IMG/VR virus record: IMGVR_UViG_3300042448_000646
Location: 57,957-121,956 of that record
DNA from: a virus
DNA length: 64,000 bases
Reading direction: 5' to 3' (one strand)
Below, piece after piece: positions 2 through 58,520 of this stretch. Position numbers and translations under genes: made by a program. Under the pieces are notes generated by a model that saw only the letters and a program-made list of their open reading frames with translations, was not told the origin of the DNA and searched no databases. Numbering within the stretch: position 1 is the first letter of the stretch; the number at the start of each line of letters is the position of its first letter.

Positions 2-1198
2 AGTACTGAGAACCTATCTATAAAGGAACAAGCCCCAAGTGAAGCTACTCAATTTGCTCAAGCTAAAGAAGCAAAAGTTATAAGTGAGAACATCCCACCG
101 ACACAAGCAACTACAATTGCTGCTGTTGAGAAAATGATTGCTGATTCTAAAAAGATTCCTGATCCAAGTAAAGAAGGTTATCTTATTAATGGTAAACGTT
201 ATGAAAGACAATCTAATTTTGTTAAACGAGCCTTAGGAGATACTAGTGTTGTTACCGAAGACTCTATTGTTAATATGGAGATGGGAGCAGCTGTAGGTAA
301 CTTACTTGATATTATAGGTCGTGATGTACTTGGAGGTAATAAAATAAAGTCTTTGTCTGGGTATCTTAAAGAAGCTGAACGTATGGGCAAATCTCTTAAG
401 GGAGGTACTGGGTATAAGATTAACTTTACTCAAGAACAGTTTGACGAATTATTAGCAGAACTTACAGAAGTTAAAGAGGAATTAAATGCACAAGGATGGA
501 AGTTGTTTACTGAAGGATTGATTGTACACCGTGAGTTTACTGAAAAAGAAAAAGAAGAAACTGGCTATGAAGGTGTAGCTGGAGCAATGGATATCTTAGC
601 AGTAGATCCTGAAGGTAAAGTACACATTATTGACTTTAAGAATAAGAAGTACAGAACTCAAGATAAATTTACAAGTACTCTCTATAGTTCTAAACAGGGG
701 TATCCTTCTAACGTAAGCAAGTGGTCTATTCAACAAACTACCTATGCTATCTTAGGAGAGGACTTTGGGCTACCCGTAGATTCAATTAGTATCTTAGCAT
801 TTGCATCAGAGTATGCAGAAGCTAATGGCACAGTTACTATAGGTGGCTTAACTTTAGGTAGTAAGAAAGCAGAAGTACTTGACAAGCATAAGAGTCCTGT
901 GTCAACTAATTTGATTAAACTTGGATTTGATTCTAAGATTATCAAACACATTAAACTACGTACTGAAAAGCCTTCTAAGACACCAGCTGCTGCACCTACT
1001 ACTACTGAACCTGTAATTGCAGACCAAACAAACTTAAGTAAGCTAGAAGAGAATTTACCACAAATAGGTTCAGAAAATGCTGAAAACGTTTTTGATGTAT
1101 TAAATTTGTTAGGTATAGAAATGGATACATTAGGAGTAATTCTTCCAACTGAAGGAAGTACTGACCCTGATGCCCTTAACCCACCCCCATGTCAGTAA
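2..1198 (+). CDS. C-terminal part of a large virion cargo protein with a PD-(D/E)xK (RecB/Cas4-like) nuclease domain; 5' truncated by the window
   Basis: Frame is open from nt 2, upstream of the tracked ATG at 134; motifs GVAGAMDIL...HIIDFKNK...Q..TY; directly precedes the vRNAP gene. Confidence 0.7.
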   Translation, partial: STENLSIKEQAPSEATQFAQAKEAKVISENIPPTQATTIAAVEKMIADSKKIPDPSKEGYLINGKRYERQSNFVKRALGDTSVVTEDSIVNMEMGAAVGNLLDIIGRDVLGGNKIKSLSGYLKEAERMGKSLKGGTGYKINFTQEQFDELLAELTEVKEELNAQGWKLFTEGLIVHREFTEKEKEETGYEGVAGAMDILAVDPEGKVHIIDFKNKKYRTQDKFTSTLYSSKQGYPSNVSKWSIQQTTYAILGEDFGLPVDSISILAFASEYAEANGTVTIGGLTLGSKKAEVLDKHKSPVSTNLIKLGFDSKIIKHIKLRTEKPSKTPAAAPTTTEPVIADQTNLSKLEENLPQIGSENAENVFDVLNLLGIEMDTLGVILPTEGSTDPDALNPPPCQ

Positions 1199-1201
1199 AA
1201 G

Positions 1202-4200
1202 ATGAACGCCTGTAGTATAAAAGGAACTTCCTACGAAAAAGAGTACAGACAGATTTTGTCTGAACCTGCTATGATATTTGTTTGGAATGCAAACAATGAA
1301 CAACCTTTAGACAAAAAGAAAGTAGGAAATGAGGTAATAGAAAATCCTCTCTATACTGCTCTACTAAACCACCCAGTAACAAAAGGAGAAAGACAGAATG
1401 CACTTAAGTTAGTAGCACAAAGTTTTTTACCTGCATTTACTAGAGAGTACACTCCTAACGAAGAGGGCGACTATTCTTTAGAACAGGTGGTAAGTTATAT
1501 AGAGAAGAGACAGAAGCAAGCACAAGATCAAAGAGAGCAACTTAAGTCAAGTATTAACTTACCAACTAGTATGGCAATTAATATTCCAGATGGTGTTATT
1601 AATGAGACTGCTCGTCAAATATTCTTTTCAGAAGAACAAGGCCAAGACATCTATGACACACTTCAGTATCTACTAGGAGTAAAGAAGTCATGGGATGGTG
1701 TGTACAGTGAGTTAGTAAATCAACGTAATACTATTCTAGGTAGAGTAAAAGCAGGACAACACTTTTCTGAAGACCCTGAGAGATTAGCATACAATGAAAT
1801 CCTTGTACAAAACTTCGATAAGATTAAGTCTTGGTACGATTCTAAAGAAGGTTTAGTAGGAGAGGCAGAACTTGAAAGTCAGTTTGGAGATTCTGAAGAT
1901 TGGAAATCAAAAGACAAGTCACAAGCTCAAAGGGCATCTTCAGTTATACTAGGGTTAGTTACTTCACTACCTGCTTATCGTACTGCTATTCCAGGAGAGA
2001 TAGATTTTGAAACAGGAGAAGAGTATCAAGAAGTTACACAAGTTCAAGTTCAATCAAATGTAACGGGTCTACCTAAGTCAGGTGACTTTCAAAAGAATTG
2101 GAGTTTACTAGGAAGTACATTGTCAGGTATGACTAATTATTCTGATATGTATGAAGCTATTGAAAGTTTAGCTAGTAGATATCCTCAGTTTAGTTATTTG
2201 TTGAGCAAGATACCAAATGCTAAAATCCCTGGAAGTTTTAAGGATATTAGACAATTCTTGCTGGCTAGTGAATTTAAAAGAGTGTTTAGTGTACCTGAAG
2301 TTTCTTCTGTAGTAGTAGATGTTACATTAAAAGAAGATGGAAAGATTGCTACAACTCAGCAACTAAAAGGGTTTCAACCTGTTAGAAATGCCGTAGCTCT
2401 TTATGATTCTCAGTATTTTAGTTATAATCAAAAGTATCTAGTAAAAGGTCTAGAAGGAAATGAAGTAAATCTAGAAGGAATTCTTGAAGACTTTCAAGCT
2501 TTATTTAATGACTTAGGAAGTGCTTTGGCTAAGAAAGTTCCTATGCAAAACTTTTTATTCCCTACTCGGGTAGATAAGTTTGTGCAGTTTTTACAATCAG
2601 TTGGGTTAGGACTTAACAATCAAGAGTATCTTAAAAGTACTAACGTTAACGGGACTAAAGAATTTATACAAGCAAACTTAGATAAGTTAAAAACTCTTTA
2701 CGAGAAGTTAAAGATTGTTAGTATTGTAAATGAGTATCTAGTAGATGATGCTAAGATAAAAGTAGATAAGCCTCTTTCATTTCTTAGAGATACCATTCAA
2801 GATATTTATGTATCTAAAGGTAAAGTAAGACCTGACGTAGAAGCAGCATTAGCACAAGCTTTTGCTGATAATAAGTTACGTTACAAAGGAGGTGTTCCAC
2901 AAGCTATTGGATACTTAGGTATTAAGAAAACTGAAATTAAACCTTTTATCACTTTCTTTACTCAGTACGATGCCGAGTTTAGACCAAGTTCTTATATGAA
3001 CGCAGCGGACAAGAAAAAGTTTGTAAGAGGTCCTTGGTTTTATTTGACTCAGCAGACAAAAGTAATTAATGCAGTAGGCAGTTACGATGAGTTAATTAAC
3101 ATACCAGGTTTTGAGAGATTTGATTACCGAAAGAACCCAGATATTCTAGGGTCACTTTGGTTACAAAGAATGTTTGGATTACCTAGAACTAAGAATGCTA
3201 TAGAAGCAAGCCCTCTAGCTACTTATGTACGTAAAAAAGATACGTTAGGTAATCCTATAGAACTTAACATAGCCAACTTTGATGGTATGGAGATTAAGAA
3301 TTTTGGAGCTAAGTCAGGTAGGACAACTACTGACCAGCATCCAAATGATAAAATCTTCCAAGACTTTGCTAGTTTTTTCCAATCTCTTGAGATGGAAAAT
3401 ATACGTTTTGGAGATAAGACATCTGCGTTTACAGTACGTGCTTCTAATCCAATTCTTTCTGAGAAGATATATGTGGCTTTAAATGCTGCTGAAATGATTA
3501 CTCCTACAGAAAGAGTAGAGGCAGAGAAAGATTTAACCAATTTATTTAATGGATACTTAGCTTCAGAAGCAACAAGAATCATAAAGCTAATAGAAGAAAC
3601 AGGCAGAGGTACAACGTACGATAGATTAGGTAAGAACCTATTTATCTTCAATGATATCCTTCCTGAAGAAACATTAAATAAGTTTAAAAACGCTACATCT
3701 AAAGAAGAAGTAATTGCAGCATACACAGAAGCTACATCAATGATGTCTTCTGTTTTACAAGATTACTTTGCACAAGAGTCTCAGAAGTTAGTAGACAAGT
3801 TACTAGATACCTTTAGTACTTCTGTAAATATTAAAACAGGACAAGAGGTAACTCAAGCTCAGAGACTAAAGCAAACTGTAGAGAAGTTAAATAAACTTAA
3901 TCTTATAAGTACTCAGTTATTGCCAAGTGAGCTTAGAGACAATCCTCCAAAGATTACAGTAGAGAACCTACCGTACCTAGCAGAAATCTATTTAAAGAAC
4001 GGCTTTGTACATAACGTTGAGTTCTTGAAAATGTTTGTTGGAGATTTATCAAATTTTAATAAGACTAATATAGATGCTCGTGAAATATTTAAACGTATTC
4101 CTTTCACCTCTTCTCCTGGTAATGTATTCTTTTGGGATGAAGCAGCTCAAGAGTTCTTTGATAATGATACAAACCAAGATGCATTAAGTATTGCATATAC

Positions 4201-7200
4201 AGGAGTTGCTAATAAGTTTAGTCCAATTCTTAAAACAGTTGTCTATAATGATGTAAATACTTTTAGTACTGAATCTTACGAAGAGTATAAGAAAGTTTAT
4301 GATACTGATGACAGTTGGGATGCTTTAACTGAGAATGAGAAATCAGAATTTTCTGCGTACGTAAATAAAAGTGACGAAGAAGCCAATGCTCAAGGAGTAA
4401 TTACTCTAGACTCTTACCGTAACTATCTACTAGGAATTAATCGTTGGAGTTCAGAACAGGAACAAGCATATAACAAACAAATAAGACTAGTAAAAATTAA
4501 TCAAGAGTTAAGGAACAATCCAACAAATGCAGAAGAACTATATAAAGAGAAGAATGAGATTGTAGAAAACTTTGGCTCTGCGCTATTCCCACCTCTTAAG
4601 TTAGGTCACTACGGAGCTATTGTAGAAGACCCTAAGTTAATAGCATTACATAAATACTCATTGATTCCTTTGATTCCTAGTGCCATAGAAGGTAAAGCTT
4701 TAGAGAAACAACTTGAGTTAATGTATAGGAACAAAATAAATTACTATACATTTAAGTCTGGTTCTAAGATGGCTCAGTATGGAGAGTCTATTGATTTCTA
4801 CAAAGAAGTAACTAACGAGCAAGGAGAAAAAGTACTTGTAGTAAATGACGCACTAGGCGAAAATAACGTTACATCTATTCACCTTGAGAACTTAAGAGAA
4901 CAGCAGTACCAAGCCCCTAAGTTTAAGACTCAGGCTACACTTGCTACTCAGATGATGAAGTTGGTATTTGGAGACTTCTTTGAGAATGGGGAGATATCTT
5001 CTGACTTTAGTGAAGGAACACAAAGACAGATTCAATCTTTGTACGATTCATTTAAAAACAATATTAATGACTTAGTTACTTTTGAAACAGTTAAACTAGA
5101 AAGAAAGTTAGGAATTAAACGCAATGAAGCTAGAGAAATTGTAGGAGTAGACCAGTTACAAATGGCTAGGTTCTTTGCAGAAGAGTTAGAGAATAAAGAA
5201 GCTCCTGATGCATTACGTAGATTTATTCAAGTAAACGAAGATGGTACATTCAAGTATCCTCTAGATGCAATCAATAACAGAAATCAACTAGAGAGTCTTG
5301 TTCTAAATGTAATTAATAATAAAGTTATTTCTCAGAAAATCAATGGGGAAAGTTACATTCAAGTAGCAGGTACAGGATTTGAGGCTAAGCGATACGTTAA
5401 ACCAACAGCCGAACAGTTAAAAGAGTTTGGAGCTAACGATCTTCAATTCTATACAAGAGACCCTATTACAGGAGAAACTTTACCTATGGAAGTTAAAGTA
5501 GGATTCAATGTTAAAAAACATGGAGGCTTACTCAATCTACAGTATGGTAAAGGAAAAGTAGAAACTTTAAAGCAGTTAAATAAAATTCTAGGATCTAAAG
5601 CTCCTTTAGATGTTGCTTGGAAAAAGAAGCACATGGATAAGTTAACTATGGTAGGGGTTCGTATTCCTGTGCAAGGATTTTCTCAGATGGAGTATGCAAT
5701 TGTTAAGGAGTTTTTGCCAGAGACTGTTGGAGCAATCATGGTTCTTCCTGCACAAATCGTGGTTAAGTCAGGAGGAGACTATGACATTGATAAGTTAACT
5801 TTCTTTGAAACAGCTTACGACAACAAAGGTGAGACTTATAAGAAAGAATTCAATATAAAGGACTACGAAAGTAAGTTAGAGAAACAAAAGGAATTAAAGA
5901 AAACCAAACAAGAACTTATAGCTTTAACTGAGTTAATAGAAAAAGAGATTGCTGACAATGACATCTTTAGAGAAAGAGAGTCTCTTAAGAAAGAAATTAA
6001 TGAAATCCAAAAAGAAATTAAAGAAGCTAAAGAACTCGTAGAAGATTTCTTGGATAGTGGCTTCCTAACAAAAGAAGATGCTACTTGGGCAAGAGAAGCT
6101 GCTTCTGATAAAGAAGATTTGCAAAGAGCTTTTGCAGACTTAGATAGTTTTGATAATGCAAACGATGTTCGTGTATTACAAACTATGTCTTTAATTAAAA
6201 ATAAACTTAGAGAACTTAGCCAAGAGGTAGCAAGTATAGATGCTTACAAAAAGAGTTTAAGTAACAACTTAGTAGACACTCTTAAGGGGGTGTTGATGCA
6301 AGGAGAGTTATACAATGCATTGATTACCCCAAATACAAATAGTGTTTTAACTCAGTATACAACTCCAGGAGAAAAGATAAGCACTACCGCTGTGTTCAGT
6401 CCTTTAACTTCTTGGAGAATCTATATGGAGAACATTCTTTCTAAAGATGCACTAGGTATTGATGCTAAGATAAATACGCTTCAGAAAGAATTCCAAAGAG
6501 CAGGATTGAAGATTACAGGTAGTTTACTAAAGAAGTATTACTTTGAGTCTAATAAAGACAGCGAAGGGAATATACTTTTAGGAGGCAAGAAAGATGCACG
6601 GGGAGAAAACCGTATCTCTAAGGTATTAAGTGAGTTTATTAATGGGCACGTAGATATTGCTAAAGAAGATTGGATCATCCTATTAGGATTAGATGCAGAG
6701 ACTAGCCCATTGGCACACGCAATGATTCTTACAGGAACCCCAGTAGAACAAGTGTTAGGATTGATTAACTCTCCTATCATTAAAACAGTTTTTCAGTTGG
6801 GTAACAGACCAGAGATTCAAAAGAAACTAGATAATATTAGACCTAATAAAAAGAAAGCAATTCTTGGTTTAATTAAAAATAGACTTACTAAAGTTACAGA
6901 CCCTGAGGTTAAAGCATTAATTGATGCTGCTCAGTTAGGCATTAGTAATTTAAAAGTAAAATCTACCAACAGTATTACAGATACTTTCGTAAACAATCTA
7001 TTAGTAAATCCTAGATTTAACAAACACATAGGCAACTTTAATCCTAAAGAAAGTTTAAGTGAGGAAGAGGCTGCTATAAGAGATTTAGCATACTTGATGC
7101 AGTTCTATGTAGTAGTAAGACAACAGGATAGTTTAAGAGAGTTAACTTCTATGAGTGACTTTAACACTACTAATTATAGAACTTCTTTCCAATCTGAAGA

Positions 7201-8767
7201 ATTATTAACAGCTAGTAGCAAACTAAAGAATAACTTTAACGCAGAAGCTATTGACTTTATGTTTAAAGACTCTGCCTTAGCACAGTTTAATGTAGGTAAT
7301 CTTGTTCAACAAACTATGAGACAGATTTATCCTCTATCAGATTCTAAAGAAGTCCATTCAGATATTTATACCTTTATGGAGAGGAAAGGATTGTTCAAAG
7401 AAGAGGAAAAGATGCTAGCGATTCAAAGTTACAAGAACAATATACTAGTCCCTTATGTTCTACTAAACGCCCAAACGCCAGAGAAAGGAAACTTACTAGA
7501 CTACTATAGAGGTAAGAAAGGAATATTTGTAAGAACAACTGCTAATAATATGGCAGAAAGATTCCAGAAATTATTACAGAATCCAGAAATGAGAAACAAC
7601 TTTGTCATGACTAACATCTACATAGATGTAGAGAATCAAGGCAAAGAGATTGAGTTTAAACTAAAGAACACTGATGTAGATGAGAACAGCAAAAGTTATA
7701 GAATTGCTTTCTTAGAAGGTTTAAACAGCCCTAATGCAGAAGTTAAAAGTTTCTTTGAAGACTTAGGTATGGGTTCTTACTTGCAGTACGCAGGTTCATT
7801 TGCATCTGGTCATGTATCTACTATTGTGCCTCACGAAGTTTATGTGAGCTATACTACAAATGCTTTCAACAAGCTAACAGAACTTAAAGATACCGATAGT
7901 CCTAAGTTTGAGGCTTACTTAAGTTTAGTTAGATTCTCTACTAAAATGGCTCTTGAGACTGCGGGACCTATCAAAGGTTCAAGTACATTCTTTGTAGATA
8001 ACTATGGGGAGATGGCTAAGACCATTACTGGATTAAGCCCAGAAGTACTTAAGGTATATAAGAACAGAGAAAACCTCACCTCAGGTAAAGTAGAACCTGT
8101 GCAGCAATCTACTGCAGTTAATTCTTTAGTAGAGGCAGGAGTTAAGCCTACTGATATGGCAGGTAATGCTGCTAAAGATATACAGATGGCTTCTGAGTCT
8201 ACTCAGTTTATTGGCTTCCAATCAGGAACTGCTACAGTAAGTTCTACCAATAAATACAAAGAAGCTTGGGGAAATAAAGCAAACACAGGAAACTACACAG
8301 CAAATGATGTAGTGATGGTTTCAGGTAGTGGTTTATTTAGGGGAGTTACTGAAGCTCAGATAAAAGAAACTTTAACTAATCAATACAAACCTTTGTTAGA
8401 ACAGGCTATTGCTGCTGGTGCTTCTTTTAGAGTAGGTAATCAATATGCTAAAGGAAATCTTTCCGATCAGTTAATTGCTCAGTATCTAAAAACTAAAGGA
8501 TATCAAGAAGAGAAATTTGATGGGTATTCTAGATGGACTCCTGAAGTTACTGAAACAAGTCAACAGACTCAAGCAGAAGTTATAGAAAACTTTGAAGAAG
8601 ATTCTGATGTTACGGATACCAATGTGCCCAATACTCCGACACAGTTTCCTCCAACGAAAACAGATGCCATTCAACTTACCTTAAAGTTAGACCCTGATCA
8701 GAAAGATGATGATAAGGGTAACTTAGATGACTTAGGGTTTGAAGAAGATACCTGTGAGATAGTTTAA
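1202..8767 (+). CDS. Virion-packaged single-chain RNA polymerase (phi14:2 gp66-like, two-barrel)
   Basis: 2521 aa; catalytic DxDxD in KSGGDYDIDKL (nt 5777-5791) preceded by VGVRIPVQG; middle of three giant ORFs, as in crAss-like phages. Confidence 0.9.
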   Translation: MNACSIKGTSYEKEYRQILSEPAMIFVWNANNEQPLDKKKVGNEVIENPLYTALLNHPVTKGERQNALKLVAQSFLPAFTREYTPNEEGDYSLEQVVSYIEKRQKQAQDQREQLKSSINLPTSMAINIPDGVINETARQIFFSEEQGQDIYDTLQYLLGVKKSWDGVYSELVNQRNTILGRVKAGQHFSEDPERLAYNEILVQNFDKIKSWYDSKEGLVGEAELESQFGDSEDWKSKDKSQAQRASSVILGLVTSLPAYRTAIPGEIDFETGEEYQEVTQVQVQSNVTGLPKSGDFQKNWSLLGSTLSGMTNYSDMYEAIESLASRYPQFSYLLSKIPNAKIPGSFKDIRQFLLASEFKRVFSVPEVSSVVVDVTLKEDGKIATTQQLKGFQPVRNAVALYDSQYFSYNQKYLVKGLEGNEVNLEGILEDFQALFNDLGSALAKKVPMQNFLFPTRVDKFVQFLQSVGLGLNNQEYLKSTNVNGTKEFIQANLDKLKTLYEKLKIVSIVNEYLVDDAKIKVDKPLSFLRDTIQDIYVSKGKVRPDVEAALAQAFADNKLRYKGGVPQAIGYLGIKKTEIKPFITFFTQYDAEFRPSSYMNAADKKKFVRGPWFYLTQQTKVINAVGSYDELINIPGFERFDYRKNPDILGSLWLQRMFGLPRTKNAIEASPLATYVRKKDTLGNPIELNIANFDGMEIKNFGAKSGRTTTDQHPNDKIFQDFASFFQSLEMENIRFGDKTSAFTVRASNPILSEKIYVALNAAEMITPTERVEAEKDLTNLFNGYLASEATRIIKLIEETGRGTTYDRLGKNLFIFNDILPEETLNKFKNATSKEEVIAAYTEATSMMSSVLQDYFAQESQKLVDKLLDTFSTSVNIKTGQEVTQAQRLKQTVEKLNKLNLISTQLLPSELRDNPPKITVENLPYLAEIYLKNGFVHNVEFLKMFVGDLSNFNKTNIDAREIFKRIPFTSSPGNVFFWDEAAQEFFDNDTNQDALSIAYTGVANKFSPILKTVVYNDVNTFSTESYEEYKKVYDTDDSWDALTENEKSEFSAYVNKSDEEANAQGVITLDSYRNYLLGINRWSSEQEQAYNKQIRLVKINQELRNNPTNAEELYKEKNEIVENFGSALFPPLKLGHYGAIVEDPKLIALHKYSLIPLIPSAIEGKALEKQLELMYRNKINYYTFKSGSKMAQYGESIDFYKEVTNEQGEKVLVVNDALGENNVTSIHLENLREQQYQAPKFKTQATLATQMMKLVFGDFFENGEISSDFSEGTQRQIQSLYDSFKNNINDLVTFETVKLERKLGIKRNEAREIVGVDQLQMARFFAEELENKEAPDALRRFIQVNEDGTFKYPLDAINNRNQLESLVLNVINNKVISQKINGESYIQVAGTGFEAKRYVKPTAEQLKEFGANDLQFYTRDPITGETLPMEVKVGFNVKKHGGLLNLQYGKGKVETLKQLNKILGSKAPLDVAWKKKHMDKLTMVGVRIPVQGFSQMEYAIVKEFLPETVGAIMVLPAQIVVKSGGDYDIDKLTFFETAYDNKGETYKKEFNIKDYESKLEKQKELKKTKQELIALTELIEKEIADNDIFRERESLKKEINEIQKEIKEAKELVEDFLDSGFLTKEDATWAREAASDKEDLQRAFADLDSFDNANDVRVLQTMSLIKNKLRELSQEVASIDAYKKSLSNNLVDTLKGVLMQGELYNALITPNTNSVLTQYTTPGEKISTTAVFSPLTSWRIYMENILSKDALGIDAKINTLQKEFQRAGLKITGSLLKKYYFESNKDSEGNILLGGKKDARGENRISKVLSEFINGHVDIAKEDWIILLGLDAETSPLAHAMILTGTPVEQVLGLINSPIIKTVFQLGNRPEIQKKLDNIRPNKKKAILGLIKNRLTKVTDPEVKALIDAAQLGISNLKVKSTNSITDTFVNNLLVNPRFNKHIGNFNPKESLSEEEAAIRDLAYLMQFYVVVRQQDSLRELTSMSDFNTTNYRTSFQSEELLTASSKLKNNFNAEAIDFMFKDSALAQFNVGNLVQQTMRQIYPLSDSKEVHSDIYTFMERKGLFKEEEKMLAIQSYKNNILVPYVLLNAQTPEKGNLLDYYRGKKGIFVRTTANNMAERFQKLLQNPEMRNNFVMTNIYIDVENQGKEIEFKLKNTDVDENSKSYRIAFLEGLNSPNAEVKSFFEDLGMGSYLQYAGSFASGHVSTIVPHEVYVSYTTNAFNKLTELKDTDSPKFEAYLSLVRFSTKMALETAGPIKGSSTFFVDNYGEMAKTITGLSPEVLKVYKNRENLTSGKVEPVQQSTAVNSLVEAGVKPTDMAGNAAKDIQMASESTQFIGFQSGTATVSSTNKYKEAWGNKANTGNYTANDVVMVSGSGLFRGVTEAQIKETLTNQYKPLLEQAIAAGASFRVGNQYAKGNLSDQLIAQYLKTKGYQEEKFDGYSRWTPEVTETSQQTQAEVIENFEEDSDVTDTNVPNTPTQFPPTKTDAIQLTLKLDPDQKDDDKGNLDDLGFEEDTCEIV

Positions 8768-8797
8768 CTTACAAAGTGAAGGGGTGCAAGTCTTTAC

Positions 8798-8827
8798 TTG
8801 CATTCCTTGTTATTTCGATTAAATTTG
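8798..8827 (+). promoter_or_regulatory. Bacteroidota sigma70-type promoter
   Basis: TTG(8798)-N19-TAAATTTG(8820-8827) upstream of ATG 8854; overlaps a hairpin at 8780-8808. Confidence 0.65.
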
Positions 8828-8853
8828 TATAACTAATAATACAACATTCTACA

Positions 8854-11800
8854 ATGTCTTGTTTTGCAAAAATAAAATCTCCACTCAACGGTAAAACTAT
8901 AACTAGTCCTGCCTACTACCAATTAACATCATTTTTTCCACCTGCTGAAGGGAGAAGAATATATGAGGCTACTACCACTATTAGTTTTAAAACCGAAATT
9001 GGTTTTGATTGGACTAAACGTCAACAAGGATACAGCCCTAAGCTAAACTTTGCTGGGGAGCCTACTTTAGATCAAATCAATACACACCTTAGACTAAACT
9101 TAAACCCACGGGAGATTAGGGCAGGAGAGCAAATGGATGAGGTAGCAAGTCTAGGTTACTTAAACAAAGGTTATGCTAATCCAAATGCTTTTAACCTAAT
9201 CACCAATGAGATTAACTTAAACCCCAAGTACAGTTTAATAGAGAGTGAGGTATTAGCAAGAGACGGCAAGTATTATCTGTCAGTTAAACCAGCTATCTCT
9301 GCACAGACCGCCTTAGAGTTTAAGCAGAGCTCAGACAAACGTAGTACAGAGAGTGACAATATCAAGTTTACAAAAGATTCTGTTGTTGCAGATGCGAATG
9401 GAAATCCTATTGTAGTATACAATAATACAAACGAACCTGCAACTAGATTTACAGAAGGCAGACCTACAGGTTTATTCTTTACTCCGAATGTTGAAATGTT
9501 TTCTGAGTATGGTGCTACTAAGTATGGAGCAGTTTTAAATATCAAAAATCCGTACTACGCTGCTAGTAATGCTATAAGAAAAGAAACAGACATACAAAAG
9601 TTAAAAGATGCTGGTTACGATGGTGTTATAACTCATCCTGAATATAAATTTGATAGATATATATCTAATATACAAAATGAAGATGCTGCTATAGATGATT
9701 ATATTAAAAATCAGAATGTCAATGATAATACCAAAGGCAAGGACAATAGAGATGCATTAGATTTATCTAAAGCTCTTGAGTTTATTGCTTTTGATTCTAG
9801 TCAAGTAAAAGTAATTAATTCGGCAGATAATAAATCTCTTTCAACAGCTGCCGCTGCAAAGTCTGTAAAACCTGTAAGTAAAGATTATTTAAGAACAGTA
9901 AAGTTTCCTGATATGATTGTTAATAATGTTGCGGATTTTTCCAATGCAGGATTAATAGAGTTGATGGATAACTTACTTAAGAACAAAGAGTTACCTCCTT
10001 TCCAACATAAGATGTTAGAAAGACTGCGTAATTTAATGAAGATAAATCCAACACTCAAACTTGCAGTATTCGATGATGCTGAAGTAGACGAAGAGTTCCA
10101 AAGGTCTTTTTACGACCCGAAGAGTAACACCATATACATTGGTAAAACAGTAACATCAGAATTTAATAAAGAGTCATTTGCTCGGGAGTTAATTCACGAA
10201 GCAGTACACGCTTACACGATATCAGCTTTAACCAATCCAGTAACTGCAGAAGAAATTAAATTTAGACAGGAGATGGAGAAATACATCTCTGAATATAAAT
10301 CTAAATTTCCTAGACTACAGCACCACTACGGCTTTAAGAATGTTGAAGAGTTTGTGTCAGAGTATCTCTCTAATCCCTACTTTAGAAACGATCTACAAGA
10401 AGCAGAGAGAACAAATAAAGACAAAACATTTGTAGGACGTGTTACAGAAAACATAAAGAGATTCTTAAAGAATGTATTAGGTTTAGGAGATACCTTGTTT
10501 GATAGAGTTAATCAAACAGTAGATGATTACTTTGACTATCTGGATAATCTAGAAGATATGCCAGACTTAGCAGGTGAACATGAACTAAGATTTAACCAAC
10601 CATATGCAGCACAACCTTTAAACCCACTTAGTGTTAACTTAAGTCAGTTCCAACAGTATGTTGATAGTACTTTTAATAGTTCTAGTTGGAAACAACTAAG
10701 TCAGGGGTTGTCTGAGATTGACCCACGTTTTGCTTCTATTGAAAGAATCAGAGAAAAATTTGGTAATATATCAAGTGCATCCTTAGCAAGTACTATTAAA
10801 TCTTCTATTGATTATTTAGTAGCAATAGAGCAGTTAGTAGATAGAGTTATTAAAGATGTTGACTTACATAGAAATAACTTAGGATATTATAGTTCAGAAG
10901 ATGCTGTATCAGTGTTTAACCATGCAATACACATAGCTGACTTTGTTCAAGAACAGATGGCTGCTTACAATCAGTATCTAATGCCTCAGTTGAGGATGGA
11001 ACAAACAAAGACTGACTTAGATATAAATCCTATAGGAGCTGCAGAGTTTAGACAAGAACGCAGAAGTCAAGTAGAGAACTTTGATATTGTTTCTCAAGAG
11101 TTAATTGCCAAGCTTAAAAACATTTCTGATAGATCAAACAGTTTGAGAAATGAAGCTAAGTCTTCTATCTTAGCTCCAGTAGCTTCTCAATTAAGTGAGC
11201 CTTTTAGATTAATTGCTGCTCAGTTAAAAGAGCCAAACAGTCAGTTGAATCAAGAGATTGATGCCAAAGAAAAGTTATACAACCAAGCTTTAGCAAACAA
11301 CCAGACTAAGAAAGCAGCTGATATGTTAAAGGACTTGAGTCAGCTTAGGATGTTTAGAGATTGGGTTCCTACTCAACAAAACATTATTAAGTTACTTCAA
11401 ACTGGTATGAACCCTCAATACACGGGTGCTAACTTCTTTACTATTTACTTGGGAGTTGCTAACATGACAGGCAGTCCTTTGGTTCAGGTAGTTAAAGAAT
11501 ACTTAGACGTACACTTAACTGAGGCGGGTAACAAGAGTCTTGAGTATACTAACAGAGCTAAAAAATTATTTGATAAAGTTGAAGCCAGAAATAAAAAGCA
11601 AGGTATTCGTTGGACACAAAGTATAGACAACTTTTACAAGAATTTAACTCGTGAAGTTGATATGGTTTACTATGACGCCAATGGTGTTCGTAAAGTAGTA
11701 AAACAACTTGCTTATAATACAAAGTTTAAAGAGGCTGAGTTTAGAAATGATTTGCAGGAGTTAAAAAGAAATGTAGACTCGGCTAAAAAAGGAGGAGTAG

Positions 11801-17235: not shown

Positions 17236-17814
17236 ATGAAAAAATCTATTATACTATTGTTATTTTTAGTTGCTGTAAAGATCTATGCTCAGAGAGACAG
17301 CGTATTTATTAAGACTCCAATCTATTCTTGTGTTTATTCTGAGATTTTACAACAACCTAAGCGTATATGGTACACAGTTCAATGCCCTTTAGGTTCTTAT
17401 CCTCGTAAAGGAATGGACTTCTACACTAACGATAGTGTAAAGACATCTGATGGTAAGGATTATGAAGGAAATGTATGGGACAAAGGACACGGTGCTCCTG
17501 CTGCTGACTTTAACTGCACAAGAGAAACCTTGTGGCAGACGTTTTCGTATTTAAATTGTATTCTCCAGCACGAGAAACTTAATAGAGGTGCTTGGAGATT
17601 ACTTGAGGTACGTGAGCGAGAGTTAGCCAAATTAAGTAAAGTAGAAGTAGAAATAAGAGTTATCTATGGACCTAAAGCAGTTAAGTTACCAACAGGTGCT
17701 ACTATACCAACGGCTTTCTACAAGACTATAAAGTTTGGAAATACAAAAGAAGTGTATTACTTTGCAAACGAAGCACCCGCTACTACAGATTATACTAAGT
17801 ATAAGGTGCAATAA
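17236..17814 (+). CDS. Secreted DNA/RNA non-specific endonuclease (NucA/Serratia-type, betabetaalpha-metal)
   Basis: Signal peptide; WDKGHGAPAADF...TFSYLNCILQHEKLNRGAWRLLE. Confidence 0.85.
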   Translation: MKKSIILLLFLVAVKIYAQRDSVFIKTPIYSCVYSEILQQPKRIWYTVQCPLGSYPRKGMDFYTNDSVKTSDGKDYEGNVWDKGHGAPAADFNCTRETLWQTFSYLNCILQHEKLNRGAWRLLEVRERELAKLSKVEVEIRVIYGPKAVKLPTGATIPTAFYKTIKFGNTKEVYYFANEAPATTDYTKYKVQ

Positions 17815-57100: not shown

Positions 57101-58520
57101 ATATCCAGCCGTAGGATTTAAAAATAGTACTACAGCTTGGTTATGGTATGGGCAAAATTCAACATTTAAAATGTGGAATGTAACAGCTGGAGATATATTA
57201 ACTGCAAATACAAGTGGTAATATTGGAATTGGAACTACATCCCCGTCTACTAAACTTGATGTAAATGGTGTTATATCTGCAACGGGGGGCAATAGCACTA
57301 ATTGGAACACAGCCTACGGATGGGGTAACCATGCTTCTGCAGATTATATAGTAAAAGGTACGCAAATTTTAAGTTCAGCTAGTTGGCCTACGGCTACTAG
57401 ATTTGGATCAGTAGGGTCCATTAGTCAAGATGCTGGAAACCATGCTTTATCTGTTAGGTCTGAACTTGGCAATGATGCTTTCATGTCATTTCATATTGGG
57501 AGTGATTATGCTGTTCATTTTGGTTTAGATGGAGTTAGCAATAGAATGTCTGTTGGAGGATGGTCTGATGGAGCTGTTAAATACCAACTTTGGGATACTA
57601 GAGATTTTACTTCAACTAACGTAAGTAACTGGAACACCGCTTATTCATGGGGCAACCATGCTTCTGCTAGTTATGCTACTACATCTTATGTAACAACCCA
57701 AATCAACAACCTAATTAATGGAGCTCCAGGTGTATTAGATACACTTGATGAATTGGCTGCTGCTTTAGGAGATGATTCAAACTTTGCAACTACAGTAACT
57801 AATAGTATTGCAGGTAAGGTTTCTAAGGCTGGTGATACCATGACTGGCAACATCAACTGGGATACTCAAAATACAGGTTTAACCTGGAATATGAATACTG
57901 ATGGAGCCTACATTAAGTTTTTTAATACAGGAGACGGAGACACAAATTCTAGGTTAGAATATTCTACATCTGACAATGGTGATGAATTTCATCGTTGGGT
58001 TATTGCAGGTGTTGAAAAGATGAACCTTAAGTGGGGAGGTCTTACAGTAACCGATACTATTTATGCCTCAGGGGGCAACTCAGGTAACTGGAACACAGCC
58101 TATGGGTGGGGAAATCATGCTTCCGCAGGATATGCTCTTAACTCTAGTTTAGCAAATTACTTACCTTTAAGCGGTGGAGTAATAGGTGGAGGAGTTACCA
58201 TAAACGGAAACTTAACTGTTAACGGAACAATTACAGAAAACTCCTCTATTAAATTAAAAGAAAACATAGAAACAAGTGAGGGAAATTTAGAAAAGGTAGT
58301 AAATTTGAGACCAGTCACTTACAATAAGATTGGGTCTCAGACTACAGAACTAGGTCTTATTGCAGAAGAAGTTGCTGAGGTGTACCCAGAATTTGTACAA
58401 TATGATGAGAACGGAGAACCTATAGGGGTTCACTACTCTCGCTTAACTGCTGCTCTTATAGGTGCAGTAAAAGAATTAACTAATCAAGTCCAAGAATTAA
58501 ACAAAAAGATAAATGGCTAA
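54129..58520 (+). CDS. Long tail fibre with C-terminal peptidase S74 intramolecular chaperone
   Basis: APGTLDTL-ELA-ALG motifs, GNVGIGT repeats; SSIKLKENI...LRPVTY...GLIAEEV...YSRLTAALIGAVKEL. Confidence 0.85.
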   Translation: MASEFKIKNGLIVVGDVSTSGTITINGALAATQSWVTSQAYLTSSSLTSYATQSYVTSAIASLVDSAPGTLDTLRELATALGNDASFSTTITNSISSKQSQLNGTGLVRMSGTSVSYDNTTYLISNFGNIEGDHTYGYPSSNGWYKIAEVVFNGACQSYNLWGEYRDTGYFDNSHYRIHITARAECDFPTNNESHAINVNIYGSSTNETYFSNNVRVVLTSSSSNYRKYELQYYRETWDTGSWNLQNIGWTTYTTSQTAGTPTGTARVYYISKFSTDNIFVANKISIGTTYAGFAANIAGTTYIIGGDLFLSDGYTVRNASNNSSIAFNTSALSFTGAATFSSTISSGGNINVGGQLTFTPNEARIISGSSTFAINNNANNTNLLLINNSTGNVGIGTSSPGYKLDVQGSAGNITINTNGLLSAGGQIISGTGEFASSSSGTDLNFRAGATHLMVLKTSGNVGIGTTTPQKKLDVFGSAGIVASFGASISPGEFAGLHFGYSESYINNDSYKKSALVFERTDNNNQGGNASGKIHFLLNNYGSSSATSLTQSVVTIDSDASATVGSVRMGIGTRNPIFNLQVGENAGTIATTTIRLQNSYLDNGNYGFNIDAVDNGVNGHDLRFFGRTSPTSSFSELVRIKNSGNVGIGTNSPTEKIDVDGNIRIRGNRGVYFDTTGAVASNYITVTNDYWTTIHCARGNTSTINLTNGNGITFFESSIERMRIAAGGNVGIGTTSPANKLVVTSDASPTNENTYAIAAASASDPAYKTIIGYDYTNDIGLIAAVRTGIGWRNLSIPQGSLGIGTYSPSYKLDVNGETRLGKLITTWSNSPISPSAVMYSESGYNTVFAGNGQFSTSYLALMTTGNMSYMGGNIGIGTVTPATSLEVQGAASTQIQAIFQSASSGNAAYNGGIQLGNAASNQKSTIVHDSSGDNTLTFTSHYSSGSANKFIFAPGGTERVRFQQNGNVGIGTTDPTSQMSGTFGIGIYNASYPAVGFKNSTTAWLWYGQNSTFKMWNVTAGDILTANTSGNIGIGTTSPSTKLDVNGVISATGGNSTNWNTAYGWGNHASADYIVKGTQILSSASWPTATRFGSVGSISQDAGNHALSVRSELGNDAFMSFHIGSDYAVHFGLDGVSNRMSVGGWSDGAVKYQLWDTRDFTSTNVSNWNTAYSWGNHASASYATTSYVTTQINNLINGAPGVLDTLDELAAALGDDSNFATTVTNSIAGKVSKAGDTMTGNINWDTQNTGLTWNMNTDGAYIKFFNTGDGDTNSRLEYSTSDNGDEFHRWVIAGVEKMNLKWGGLTVTDTIYASGGNSGNWNTAYGWGNHASAGYALNSSLANYLPLSGGVIGGGVTINGNLTVNGTITENSSIKLKENIETSEGNLEKVVNLRPVTYNKIGSQTTELGLIAEEVAEVYPEFVQYDENGEPIGVHYSRLTAALIGAVKELTNQVQELNKKING

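Follow-up and report, generated by a model that had tools for sequence, protein, structure and literature searches.

The RNA polymerase cargo of crAss-like phages has been described in Cellulophaga phage phi14:2 and in crAss001. Proteins of the polymerase block are packaged in the phi14:2 virion, as recorded in tandem mass spectrometry (MS/MS) notes of its GenBank record and in a preprint (bioRxiv 10.1101/2020.03.07.982082), and the main text of the crAss001 structural atlas places the corresponding proteins in the crAss001 virion (Bayfield et al., PMC10172136). Here we describe such a block in IMG/VR virus record IMGVR_UViG_3300042448_000646, a genome of 121,956 bp, of which positions 57957–121956 (64,000 nucleotides) form the window analysed. 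The block consists of three consecutive genes, P1, P2 and P3, and P2 encodes a giant virion RNA polymerase (vRNAP). We find that cysteine (Cys) in these proteins is confined to ends that face one another across a gene boundary (the C-terminal ‘tail’ of one protein and the N-terminal ‘head’ of the next), and that this layout recurs across crAss-like phages; we propose that the proteins are joined tail to head by disulfides.

Related features are known from other phages. In the cryo-electron microscopy structure of the cyanophage A4 virion, gp27 Cys1715 is disulfide-bonded to gp26 Cys5, and the C-terminal helix of gp27 lies in a cleft of gp26, according to the accessible text of the paper (PMC12002296). 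In the Anabaena phage A-4L record, these residues are the only cysteines of gp27 (1717 amino acids, aa; C1715) and gp26 (1114 aa; C5), which are encoded by consecutive genes. In 191 Schitoviridae, the Cys frequency is 0.00075% in vRNAP homologues versus 0.865% in proteomes, and the paper on phage DEV that reports this cites, in its accessible text, the idea that passage through the disulfide-forming periplasm selects against Cys in ejection proteins (PMC11445570). N4 gp50 (3500 aa), gp51 and gp52 contain no Cys. Finally, fused RNA polymerase polyproteins have been noted in some crAss-like phages, and the authors suggest that the polyprotein is cleaved (bioRxiv 10.1101/2020.03.07.982082).

Junction cysteines in the cargo block and its relatives

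P1, P2 and P3 together contain four cysteines in 7162 residues, none of them internal. The sole Cys of P1 is residue 2310 of 2311, with none at the N-terminus; P2 carries one near each end and P3 one near its N-terminus (Table 1). Cysteines were counted by script on translated open reading frames (ORFs), each taken to start at the first ATG. The counts agree with a preliminary description made from the window sequence, which placed the four codons at 1190, 1211, 8753 and 8860. That description had allowed for internal cysteines overlooked by eye; the full-length proteins, including the whole 2311-aa P1, contain none.

The 97 other ORFs of the genome contain 0.96% Cys, a frequency that predicts ~69 cysteines in P1–P3 (Poisson probability of four or fewer, ~1e-24). 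The probability that four cysteines would all fall at most 4 residues from the four junction-facing ends by chance is ~2.5e-11. Among the 97 other ORFs, 4 have a Cys in the first 10 residues and 10 have one in the last 10. P1–P3 form part of a Cys-poor block of seven consecutive genes (genome 44388–73802, 29 kb, 9684 aa), which holds these four cysteines only. The four cargo-like genes that precede P1 (411, 528, 1014 and 569 aa; genome 44388–52219, L100 389–8217) encode no Cys and no Pfam family, and by position they recall crAss001 gp45 and gp46.

We identified eight loci with 48–98% identity to P2 in an IMG/VR scan with this protein. All eight keep the terminal-Cys layout with zero internal Cys. 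Their P1 proteins terminate in …C or …CQ, their P2 proteins open with MNAC and carry a further Cys 1–4 residues from the end, and their P3 proteins open with MSC. In L001, L002 and L004–L008, P1 has its tail Cys at the very end or one residue before it. P1 and P2 share a reading frame in the window, with stop and start one codon apart, and 86 nucleotides (nt) separate P2 from P3. The frame of the P1 stop relative to the P2 start varies among the relatives, with L005 and L006 differing from the window.

The same rule fits all 10 GenBank crAss-like phages examined (phi14:2, crAss001, cr85_1, LMMB, cr60_1, cr4_1, cr53_1, cr50_1, cr108_1 and FPSV-S29). In phi14:2, gp67 has a sole Cys at its last residue (C1797 of 1797), gp66 has C3 and C2179 of 2180 residues, and gp65 has C3 only. 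In crAss001, the sole Cys of gp47 is C2339 of 2341, gp50 has C5, C1334 and C2404 of 2412, and gp49 has a sole Cys at C5. Genes 50 and 49 of crAss001 share one strand and gene 47 is on the other, and cr85_1 has both this layout and the Cys pattern. Because the P1 tail Cys is kept with P1 on the other strand, explanations that require adjacent genes are ruled out.

Several of the named phages encode fused proteins. CrAssphage LMMB encodes a 1957-aa protein that ends …SCM and a 4070-aa fusion of the catalytic and partner modules that opens with MSC and lacks a Cys close to its C-terminus. In cr60_1, cr4_1, cr53_1, cr50_1 and Flavobacterium phage FPSV-S29, a single ORF of 4419–4774 aa stands in place of P1 and P2; its head Cys is absent, a Cys lies 2–4 residues from its end, and the next protein has Cys 3. 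The penultimate Cys of the FPSV-S29 ORF is the only one among 4419 residues. Two genes upstream of the polymerase block, LMMB also encodes an 861-aa protein (1639–4224 of this locus, L011) with a single, penultimate Cys (…SCR); the next protein is Cys-free, leaving no obvious partner.

We extended the comparison with a scan that used an alignment of the polymerase core (alignment A1) as query. The survey set consists of the best 80 of 507 confirmed relatives (23–60% identity), the eight close loci, the window genome, phi14:2 and LMMB; after one locus that lacks the catalytic motif was dropped (L090), 90 loci in 72 clusters remained. crAss001 (L010) and L092–L099 were examined by hand from annotation and stand outside the 72-cluster count. 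A Cys was scored as terminal within 10 residues of an end, and a gene as a neighbour within 400 nt.

At the boundary between vRNAP and its upstream neighbour, 48 of the 60 clusters with a complete end have Cys at both facing ends, nine have it at neither (two of these have no upstream ORF), three at the head only and none at the tail only. At the downstream boundary, 63 of 69 clusters have both, one has neither and one the tail Cys only; two more have a tail Cys and no gene within 400 nt, and two have neither a tail Cys nor a downstream gene. All mixed cases resolve on inspection, as a Cys slightly deeper, inserted ORFs, a distant partner, a fragment or fusions. In L022 and L023, the P1 tail Cys lies 19 and 21 residues from the end. 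In L015 and L055, a partner gene that begins MSC starts ~520–550 nt downstream, beyond the limit. L004 is a fragmented assembly, and L011 and L080 are fusions. The terminal cysteines of the preliminary description are conserved across the surveyed loci.

The 198 block proteins of the 72 clusters (431,532 aa) contain 302 Cys, 254 terminal and 48 (0.011%) internal, and 169 of the 198 have no internal Cys; this count includes a 197-aa ORF of L047 that we judge a likely inserted gene. Other plus-strand ORFs of the surveyed loci contain 0.49% Cys. Tail and head cysteines are equal in number (127 each), an equality that arises partly by construction, since the module walk added neighbours only if both facing ends had Cys. 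In every chain, the first protein has a tail Cys only, middle proteins have both, and the last has a head Cys only. Head cysteines occupy positions 3 (62), 4 (33), 5 (22), 6 (8), 7 (1) and 10 (1), and tail cysteines lie 1 (38), 2 (32), 3 (21), 4 (17), 5 (9), 6–9 (8), 19 (1) and 21 (1) residues from the end. With cysteines so near the ends, the stubs past a joint would be only a few residues long. Position 2 is used in none of the 127 heads, though positions 3–5 hold 117 of them, and may be selected against; removal of the initiator Met from a Met-Cys start would expose a free N-terminal Cys.

Gene fusions and splits provide a further comparison. Fusion calls rest on ORF length and synteny. We identified ORFs of 3870–4798 aa directly after a small Cys-free cargo gene in L028, L040, L043, L055, L058 and L064; these lack a head Cys, and their upstream neighbour is Cys-free. 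Four Suoliviridae records with a P1–vRNAP fusion likewise combine an absent head Cys with a Cys-free upstream neighbour. The few internal cysteines of fused P1–vRNAP ORFs sit at conserved core positions, away from the former junction. The P2–P3 fusion of LMMB has no tail Cys, and L080, in which all modules form one 5002-aa ORF, has no terminal Cys at all.

Conversely, 10 clusters encode an extra link protein of 169–583 aa between vRNAP and P3 (L005, L013, L014, L016/17, L018, L019, L025, L044, L047 and L060). Each link protein has exactly two cysteines, one at position 3–5 and one 2–4 residues from the end, and none internal. The total of junction cysteines per phage is 2, 4 or 6 and tracks the number of gene breaks. 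Facing cysteines appear to be present or absent together, as a pair that is lost at fused junctions and gained at new splits, and this sequence comparison strongly supports pairing of tail with head. In L013, L014 and L005, where a link protein follows P2, the sequences at the new joint (P2 tail …NINPCG, link head MAQAC…) look like those at the P1–P2 joint of the same phage (P1 tail …INPKPCT, P2 head MNAC…), and the junction type may have been reused at these sites.

Other interruptions of the block look different. In L056 and L088, one or two small Cys-bearing nuclease-like ORFs are inserted between partners, and both partners keep their Cys. Small Cys-bearing ORFs of this kind lie at L047 14935–15528, L056 11711–13050 and L088 607–1392, each flanked by chain partners that retain their terminal Cys. 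Two inserted ORFs start …KGSCIY… and presumably resemble a GIY-YIG homing nuclease. A five-link chain was considered for L047; its 197-aa ORF starts like the nuclease-like insert of L056 (…KGSCIY…), and we take it for an inserted mobile gene, not a link. In cr108_1 (L098), the polymerase is interrupted within its catalytic motif (…AGSD, then LYDIDK…; 17344–17635, a 290-nt gap) with Cys-free break edges, and the polymerase of L037 is split at 9878–10025 (a 147-nt gap), again with edges that lack Cys. Both breaks look like introns or assembly breaks rather than chain joints. Recoding of TAG to Gln was considered for L078 and L079 and rejected: TAG is a real stop there, between a …C tail and an M-x-C head, consistent with the standard code.

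Tails, heads and cargo domains

The preliminary description had noted a low-complexity linker before each C-terminal Cys. This holds weakly: across relatives, the stretch ahead of the Cys is acidic and low in hydrophobic content. In the 20 residues before the tail Cys, Asp and Glu make up 23.2% versus 14.1% in vRNAPs overall, and hydrophobic residues 24.4% versus 33.0%. No His or second Cys is conserved beside the terminal Cys across the survey.

The heads of P2 and P3 are distinct. An AlphaFold2 (AF2) model of the P3 head shows a compact alpha/beta fold with a mean predicted local distance difference test (pLDDT) score of 72.5 (61 for residues 1–10; 74–92 in blocks covering residues 11–150). 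The lower-scoring N-terminal stretch contains Cys3, which precedes a short hairpin. A Foldseek search of the PDB with this model returned no match at E<=0.001. The P2 head is a separate conserved domain in which C4 and W28 are invariant (alignment A4). A loose N-terminal pattern proposed to be shared by P2 and P3 did not hold up; hhalign profile–profile comparison gave a probability of 3%, and the heads are not detectably related.

Particular tails and heads do recur together. An …F-E-E-x-x-C tail adjoins an MSC-x-A-x-IKSP head whether it sits on a ~2500-aa vRNAP or on a link protein of 170–200 aa. This points to the two ends moving together, although part of the association is due to shared ancestry. 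For the P2–P3 junction, we also predicted a complex of the P3 head (residues 1–150) with the last 60 aa of P2, and obtained a score of 0.50; the best of three controls reached 0.07. Of 80 solved complexes, 58 reach the benchmark mark for this score, as do 2 of 110 mismatched pairs, and scores of 0.60 or lower comprise just 7 of those 80 complexes plus both passing mismatches. Run-to-run contact agreement was at least 71% and partner pLDDT at least 49 (about 50–58), with no interface reported.

Homology of P2 and P3, together with the position of P1, identifies P1–P3 as the RNA polymerase-associated cargo block of a divergent member of the crAss-like phages. P2 is distantly homologous to the crAss-type vRNAP (BLASTP against phi14:2 gp66: E 5e-18 over ~985 columns), and its core is ~21–23% identical to crAss relatives. 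A tblastn search with P2 returned 72 phage records, nearly all from crAss-like or Flavobacterium/Cellulophaga phages, with phi14:2 gp66 at the top (~23% identity). The catalytic motif reads DYDID in this clade (the window, L005 and L006) and DFD(I/V)D in phi14:2, crAss001 and LMMB. P2 is 2521 aa long in the window; its counterparts in L001 (98% best-segment identity) and L002 measure 2773 and 2686 aa. Such variation between near-identical relatives indicates that the polymerase tolerates large insertions and deletions.

P3 contains a zincin-like HExxH region (aa 420–569, HEAVH at 448–452) with 30% identity to phi14:2 gp65 over 150 aa (E 2e-18), in which HEAVH aligns with HEIMH. Its ART-PolyVal domain is a cargo feature that lies outside the junction. 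This domain resembles a cassette of ~185–190 aa: P3 is 2330–2338 aa long with it (window, L001 and L014) and 2145–2148 aa without it (L002, L003, L005 and L013), and alignments between cassette-bearing and cassette-less relatives diverge just past residue 148.

P1 has no similarity to phi14:2 gp67 in pairwise BLASTP (best E 1.0) and no Pfam family above the cut-off; PHROGs and Pfam searches with P1 and P2 yielded nothing usable. We regard P1 as the putative counterpart of gp67 and gp47 because of its position, size and tail Cys only. Packaging and injection, which are known for the phi14:2 and crAss001 homologues, would apply to P1–P3 by analogy.

Table 1. Features of the cargo block, in window coordinates (A2, A3 and A4 in the last column are sequence alignments)
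Feature	Position	Strand	Remarks
P1, C-terminal 398 aa	2..1198	+	Putative first link; whole gene at genome 52219-59154, 2311 aa; runs off the 5' end of the window
P1 tail Cys codon TGT (…NPPPCQ, stop)	1190..1192	+	Penultimate codon
P2, vRNAP, 2521 aa	1202..8767	+	Putative middle link; Cys at 4 and 2518 only
P2 head Cys codon (MNAC…), residue 4	1211..1213	+	C4 invariant in 13-row head alignment A4
Catalytic DYDID motif of P2, aa 1526-1530	5777..5791	+	Aligned with DFDID of phi14:2 gp66
P2 tail Cys codon (…GFEEDTCEIV, stop), residue 2518	8753..8755	+	C and preceding E invariant in 11-row tail alignment A2 (L015 omitted)
P3, 2330 aa	8854..15846	+	Putative last link; Cys at 3 only, C-terminus without Cys
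P3 head Cys codon (MSC…), residue 3	8860..8862	+	C3 invariant in 12-row head alignment A3
Conserved P3 head domain, aa 1-148	8854..9297	+	Mean column identity 58% in A3, C3 invariant
ART-PolyVal ADP-ribosyltransferase domain of P3, aa 180-323	9391..9822	+	Pfam PF18760, E 1.8e-7; score 32.5 bits, just above the 31.2 cut-off

A proposed disulfide-linked cargo thread and its alternatives

We propose that P1, P2 and P3 are joined tail to head by disulfides into one linear thread, and consider this the probable arrangement in crAss-like phages. Pairing at each junction is supported by the comparison of sequences, and the chemistry would follow by analogy from cyanophage A4 and from other disulfides of crAss001. 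The acidic, flexible tail of one protein would dock on the conserved head of the next, and the facing cysteines would oxidise after the particle leaves the reducing cytoplasm. The product, P1-S-S-P2-S-S-P3, would be a thread of ~7160 residues, a post-translational counterpart of an encoded polyprotein. Internal cysteines are purged from these proteins, as from other phage ejection proteins, probably because the chains exit through a narrow channel in a partly unfolded state and then traverse an oxidising periplasm; a cross-link inside a chain would be fatal there. As each of these proteins has no more than two cysteines, both at its tips, any thread they form would be unbranched, with very short stubs, and could pass the tail in single file. 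The main text of the crAss001 atlas describes channel constrictions of under 50 Å (PMC10172136). The two-Cys limit, the confinement to tips and the short stubs look like design rules for a thread that passes such a constricted channel. From this arrangement we infer fixed stoichiometry, N-to-C ejection in gene order, and release by reduction in the cytoplasm.

Tentatively, the idea may be taken further. Crassvirales may rebuild a polyprotein post-translationally, as a thread of 5,000–7,000 residues with vRNAP as the middle bead, which leaves in single file in gene order and is cut by reduction, and whose joints evolve freely between peptide bond and disulfide. We regard this broader scheme as possible, with the odds somewhat against it.

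The preliminary description had proposed that the tail of each protein pairs with the head of the next. Paired cysteines across 72 lineages, their behaviour at splits and fusions and the cyanophage A4 bond favour this part of the claim; the bond itself is a prediction for crAss-like phages. Several observations weigh against a disulfide thread. Packaging takes place in the reducing cytoplasm, so the bond could form only afterwards, and gut crassviruses inhabit an anoxic environment. The gut phages retain internal Cys (1–7 per protein). A thioredoxin fold (PF00085) is absent from the genome, while the control matched in 13 of 14 genomes; the thiol oxidase Erv1 (PF04777) also gave no match, a result that is uninformative as its control matched nowhere. 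P2 and P3 heads are unrelated and tails vary by lineage, so there is no universal docking motif, and much of the co-conservation of tail and head could be explained by shared ancestry. The proposed docking of the P2 tail on the P3 head outscored its controls, but with a weak score and no interface. P1, P2 and P3 show no similarity to cyanophage A4 proteins or to any phage ejection protein among all PDB chains (phmmer, E<=1), and the best BLASTP match of P1 to gp27 (E 0.038) falls in a low-complexity stretch; the cyanophage A4 precedent is thus an analogy rather than a sign of family membership. Finally, Bayfield et al. ran reduced and non-reduced samples of crAss001 virions, and their main text gives disulfides for tail proteins and gp57 only (PMC10172136). 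The word ‘cysteine’ appears neither in that main text nor in the phi14:2 preprint (bioRxiv 10.1101/2020.03.07.982082; supplements and extended data lay outside the search).

Disulfides might instead form without order, giving P1–P1 and P3–P3 pairs or P2 rings and multimers, so that two tip cysteines per protein merely keep the products unbranched and threadable. The lack of a universal tail or head motif, the unrelated heads of P2 and P3 and the weak docking score are all compatible with this, and the two-Cys limit fits it as well as it fits an ordered chain. Unordered pairing does not require that the first protein lack a head Cys and the last a tail Cys, yet this is always so; nor does it account for the equal numbers of tail and head Cys (bearing in mind how they were collected) or for the persistence of each pairing of tail type and head type on different carrier proteins. 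Fused polyproteins run in the order P1-P2-P3 (bioRxiv 10.1101/2020.03.07.982082), and the cyanophage A4 bond joins a tail specifically to a head, with the tail helix seated in the next protein (PMC12002296). We consider unordered pairing unlikely. The same bond bears on a second possibility, in which the facing cysteines hold a bridging metal ion or cluster in a zinc-hook-like clasp without a disulfide. A metal could be shared between thiolates on the flexible tips and neighbouring Asp or Glu, and acidic residues are enriched in the tails. With two cysteines per junction and two, four or six per phage, the counts do not fit a four-Cys site, the tips carry no conserved His or second Cys, and the solved junction of cyanophage A4 is a disulfide (PMC12002296, accessible text). 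The preliminary description had left the choice between disulfide and metal bridge open; the metal alternative fits the counts less well, the cyanophage A4 analogy favours a disulfide, and we give a metal clasp only a slight chance. A single four-Cys metal site common to the three proteins was considered separately and rejected, as phages with two or four chain proteins have two or six cysteines.

The tips might also remain free thiols in the particle and act after ejection, either through oxidation by host Dsb proteins into an envelope-spanning ejectosome or as a redox switch of the polymerase. The packaging cytoplasm is reducing, and the published rationale for Cys suppression, in the accessible text of the DEV paper, is a periplasm that catalyses disulfides (PMC11445570). 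Free thiols are, however, exactly what the purge of internal Cys avoids. The accessible text on cyanophage A4 places its bond already inside the virion (PMC12002296), and the main text on crAss001 reports other disulfides in its virions, in the tail and gp57 (PMC10172136). A role confined to the time after ejection appears improbable. The single-codon, in-frame spacing of P1 and P2 in the window might suggest chance, or a constraint acting on the nucleotides around start and stop codons, for instance translational coupling or read-through of adjacent genes. The frame differs in L005 and L006, the P2–P3 gap is 86 nt, and the P1 tail Cys persists in crAss001 and cr85_1 with P1 on the other strand. 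The distance of the Cys from the ends also varies (3–7 residues at the N-terminus and 1–9 at the C-terminus), and the chance estimates are 2.5e-11 and 1e-24; this explanation has a negligible probability. Read-through or fusion of P1 and P2 was rejected on the same difference in frame.

Two further candidates do not fit the protein ends. In split inteins, an N-intein of ~100 aa follows the first extein and a C-intein of ~35 aa precedes the +1 Cys, Ser or Thr. Here the chain continues for only 0–8 residues beyond the tail Cys (in rare cases up to 20), and only 2–6 residues come ahead of the head Cys, leaving no space for the two halves of an intein in protein trans-splicing. In bacterial lipoproteins, a signal peptide of ~15–25 aa with a terminal lipobox leads up to the Cys; of the 127 head cysteines here, 125 lie at positions 3–6.

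Comparison with known systems

Crassviruses are among the most abundant human gut viruses, and the arrangement described here bears on how they pack and eject about a megadalton of RNA polymerase cargo. Suppression of Cys in ejection proteins, in N4-like phages, and one tail-to-head disulfide, in cyanophage A4, were already known. The literature searched (supplements and extended data were outside the search) yielded no description of a Crassvirales-wide rule, of its dependence on how genes split and fuse, or of chains of as many as four links that include the polymerase. The phi14:2 preprint contains neither ‘disulfide’ nor ‘Cys’, and a 2026 paper on N4 contains none of ‘cysteine’, ‘disulfide’, ‘covalent’ and ‘head-to-tail’. 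Bayfield et al. state in their main text that the order of extrusion probably depends on protein packing and interaction (PMC10172136). If true, a disulfide clasp could enforce a fixed stoichiometry and order of the cargo, and would explain why the genes of the block split or fuse at will and are otherwise Cys-free. The grammar of terminal cysteines is also of use in annotation, as it marks true protein boundaries and tells chain members from inserted mobile genes.

The closest relatives of the block are those of Crassvirales, phi14:2 g067-g066-g065 and crAss001 gp47-gp50-gp49, which share its gene order, its terminal-Cys pattern and the homology of P2 and P3. The block of the window differs in that P3 bears an ART-PolyVal domain, the catalytic motif is DYDID rather than DFDID, and P1 lacks similarity to gp67. 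The fused RNA polymerase polyproteins of, for example, LMMB, cr60_1 and FPSV-S29 contain the same modules in the same order, as a single giant chain or a pair of them. In these phages a peptide bond makes the link and the junction cysteines are missing, whereas here separate proteins would be joined.

In Schitoviridae (N4 gp50-52 and DEV gp71-73), a giant vRNAP and its partners are likewise almost Cys-free. The terminal cysteines are absent as well, so no link would form, unlike in the window block with its four terminal cysteines. The N4-type virion polymerase is T7-like and of another kind than the crAss polymerase. The proposed release step also has a likeness in A-B toxins, in which an interchain disulfide holds the chains together during membrane translocation and cytosolic reduction frees the active part; the likeness is one of principle only, and the proteins and translocation machinery are unrelated.

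The podophage cyanophage A4 (Anabaena phage A-4L, Saffermanviridae) provides, in the gp27–gp26 pair of its pre-ejectosome, the nearest counterpart of the proposed bond. As at the P1–P2 and P2–P3 junctions, a tail Cys of one ejection protein, gp27, faces a head Cys of the next, gp26. Cyanophage A4 has one such junction instead of a chain of two or three, no RNA polymerase is involved, and gp27 and gp26 form a pentameric ring round the portal axis. Its authors discuss the bond as a contact that stabilises the structure locally, and do not present it as a rule linked to the splitting of genes (PMC12002296). If the proposed clasp is real, the single bond of cyanophage A4 would connect to a general principle of podophage ejection proteins.

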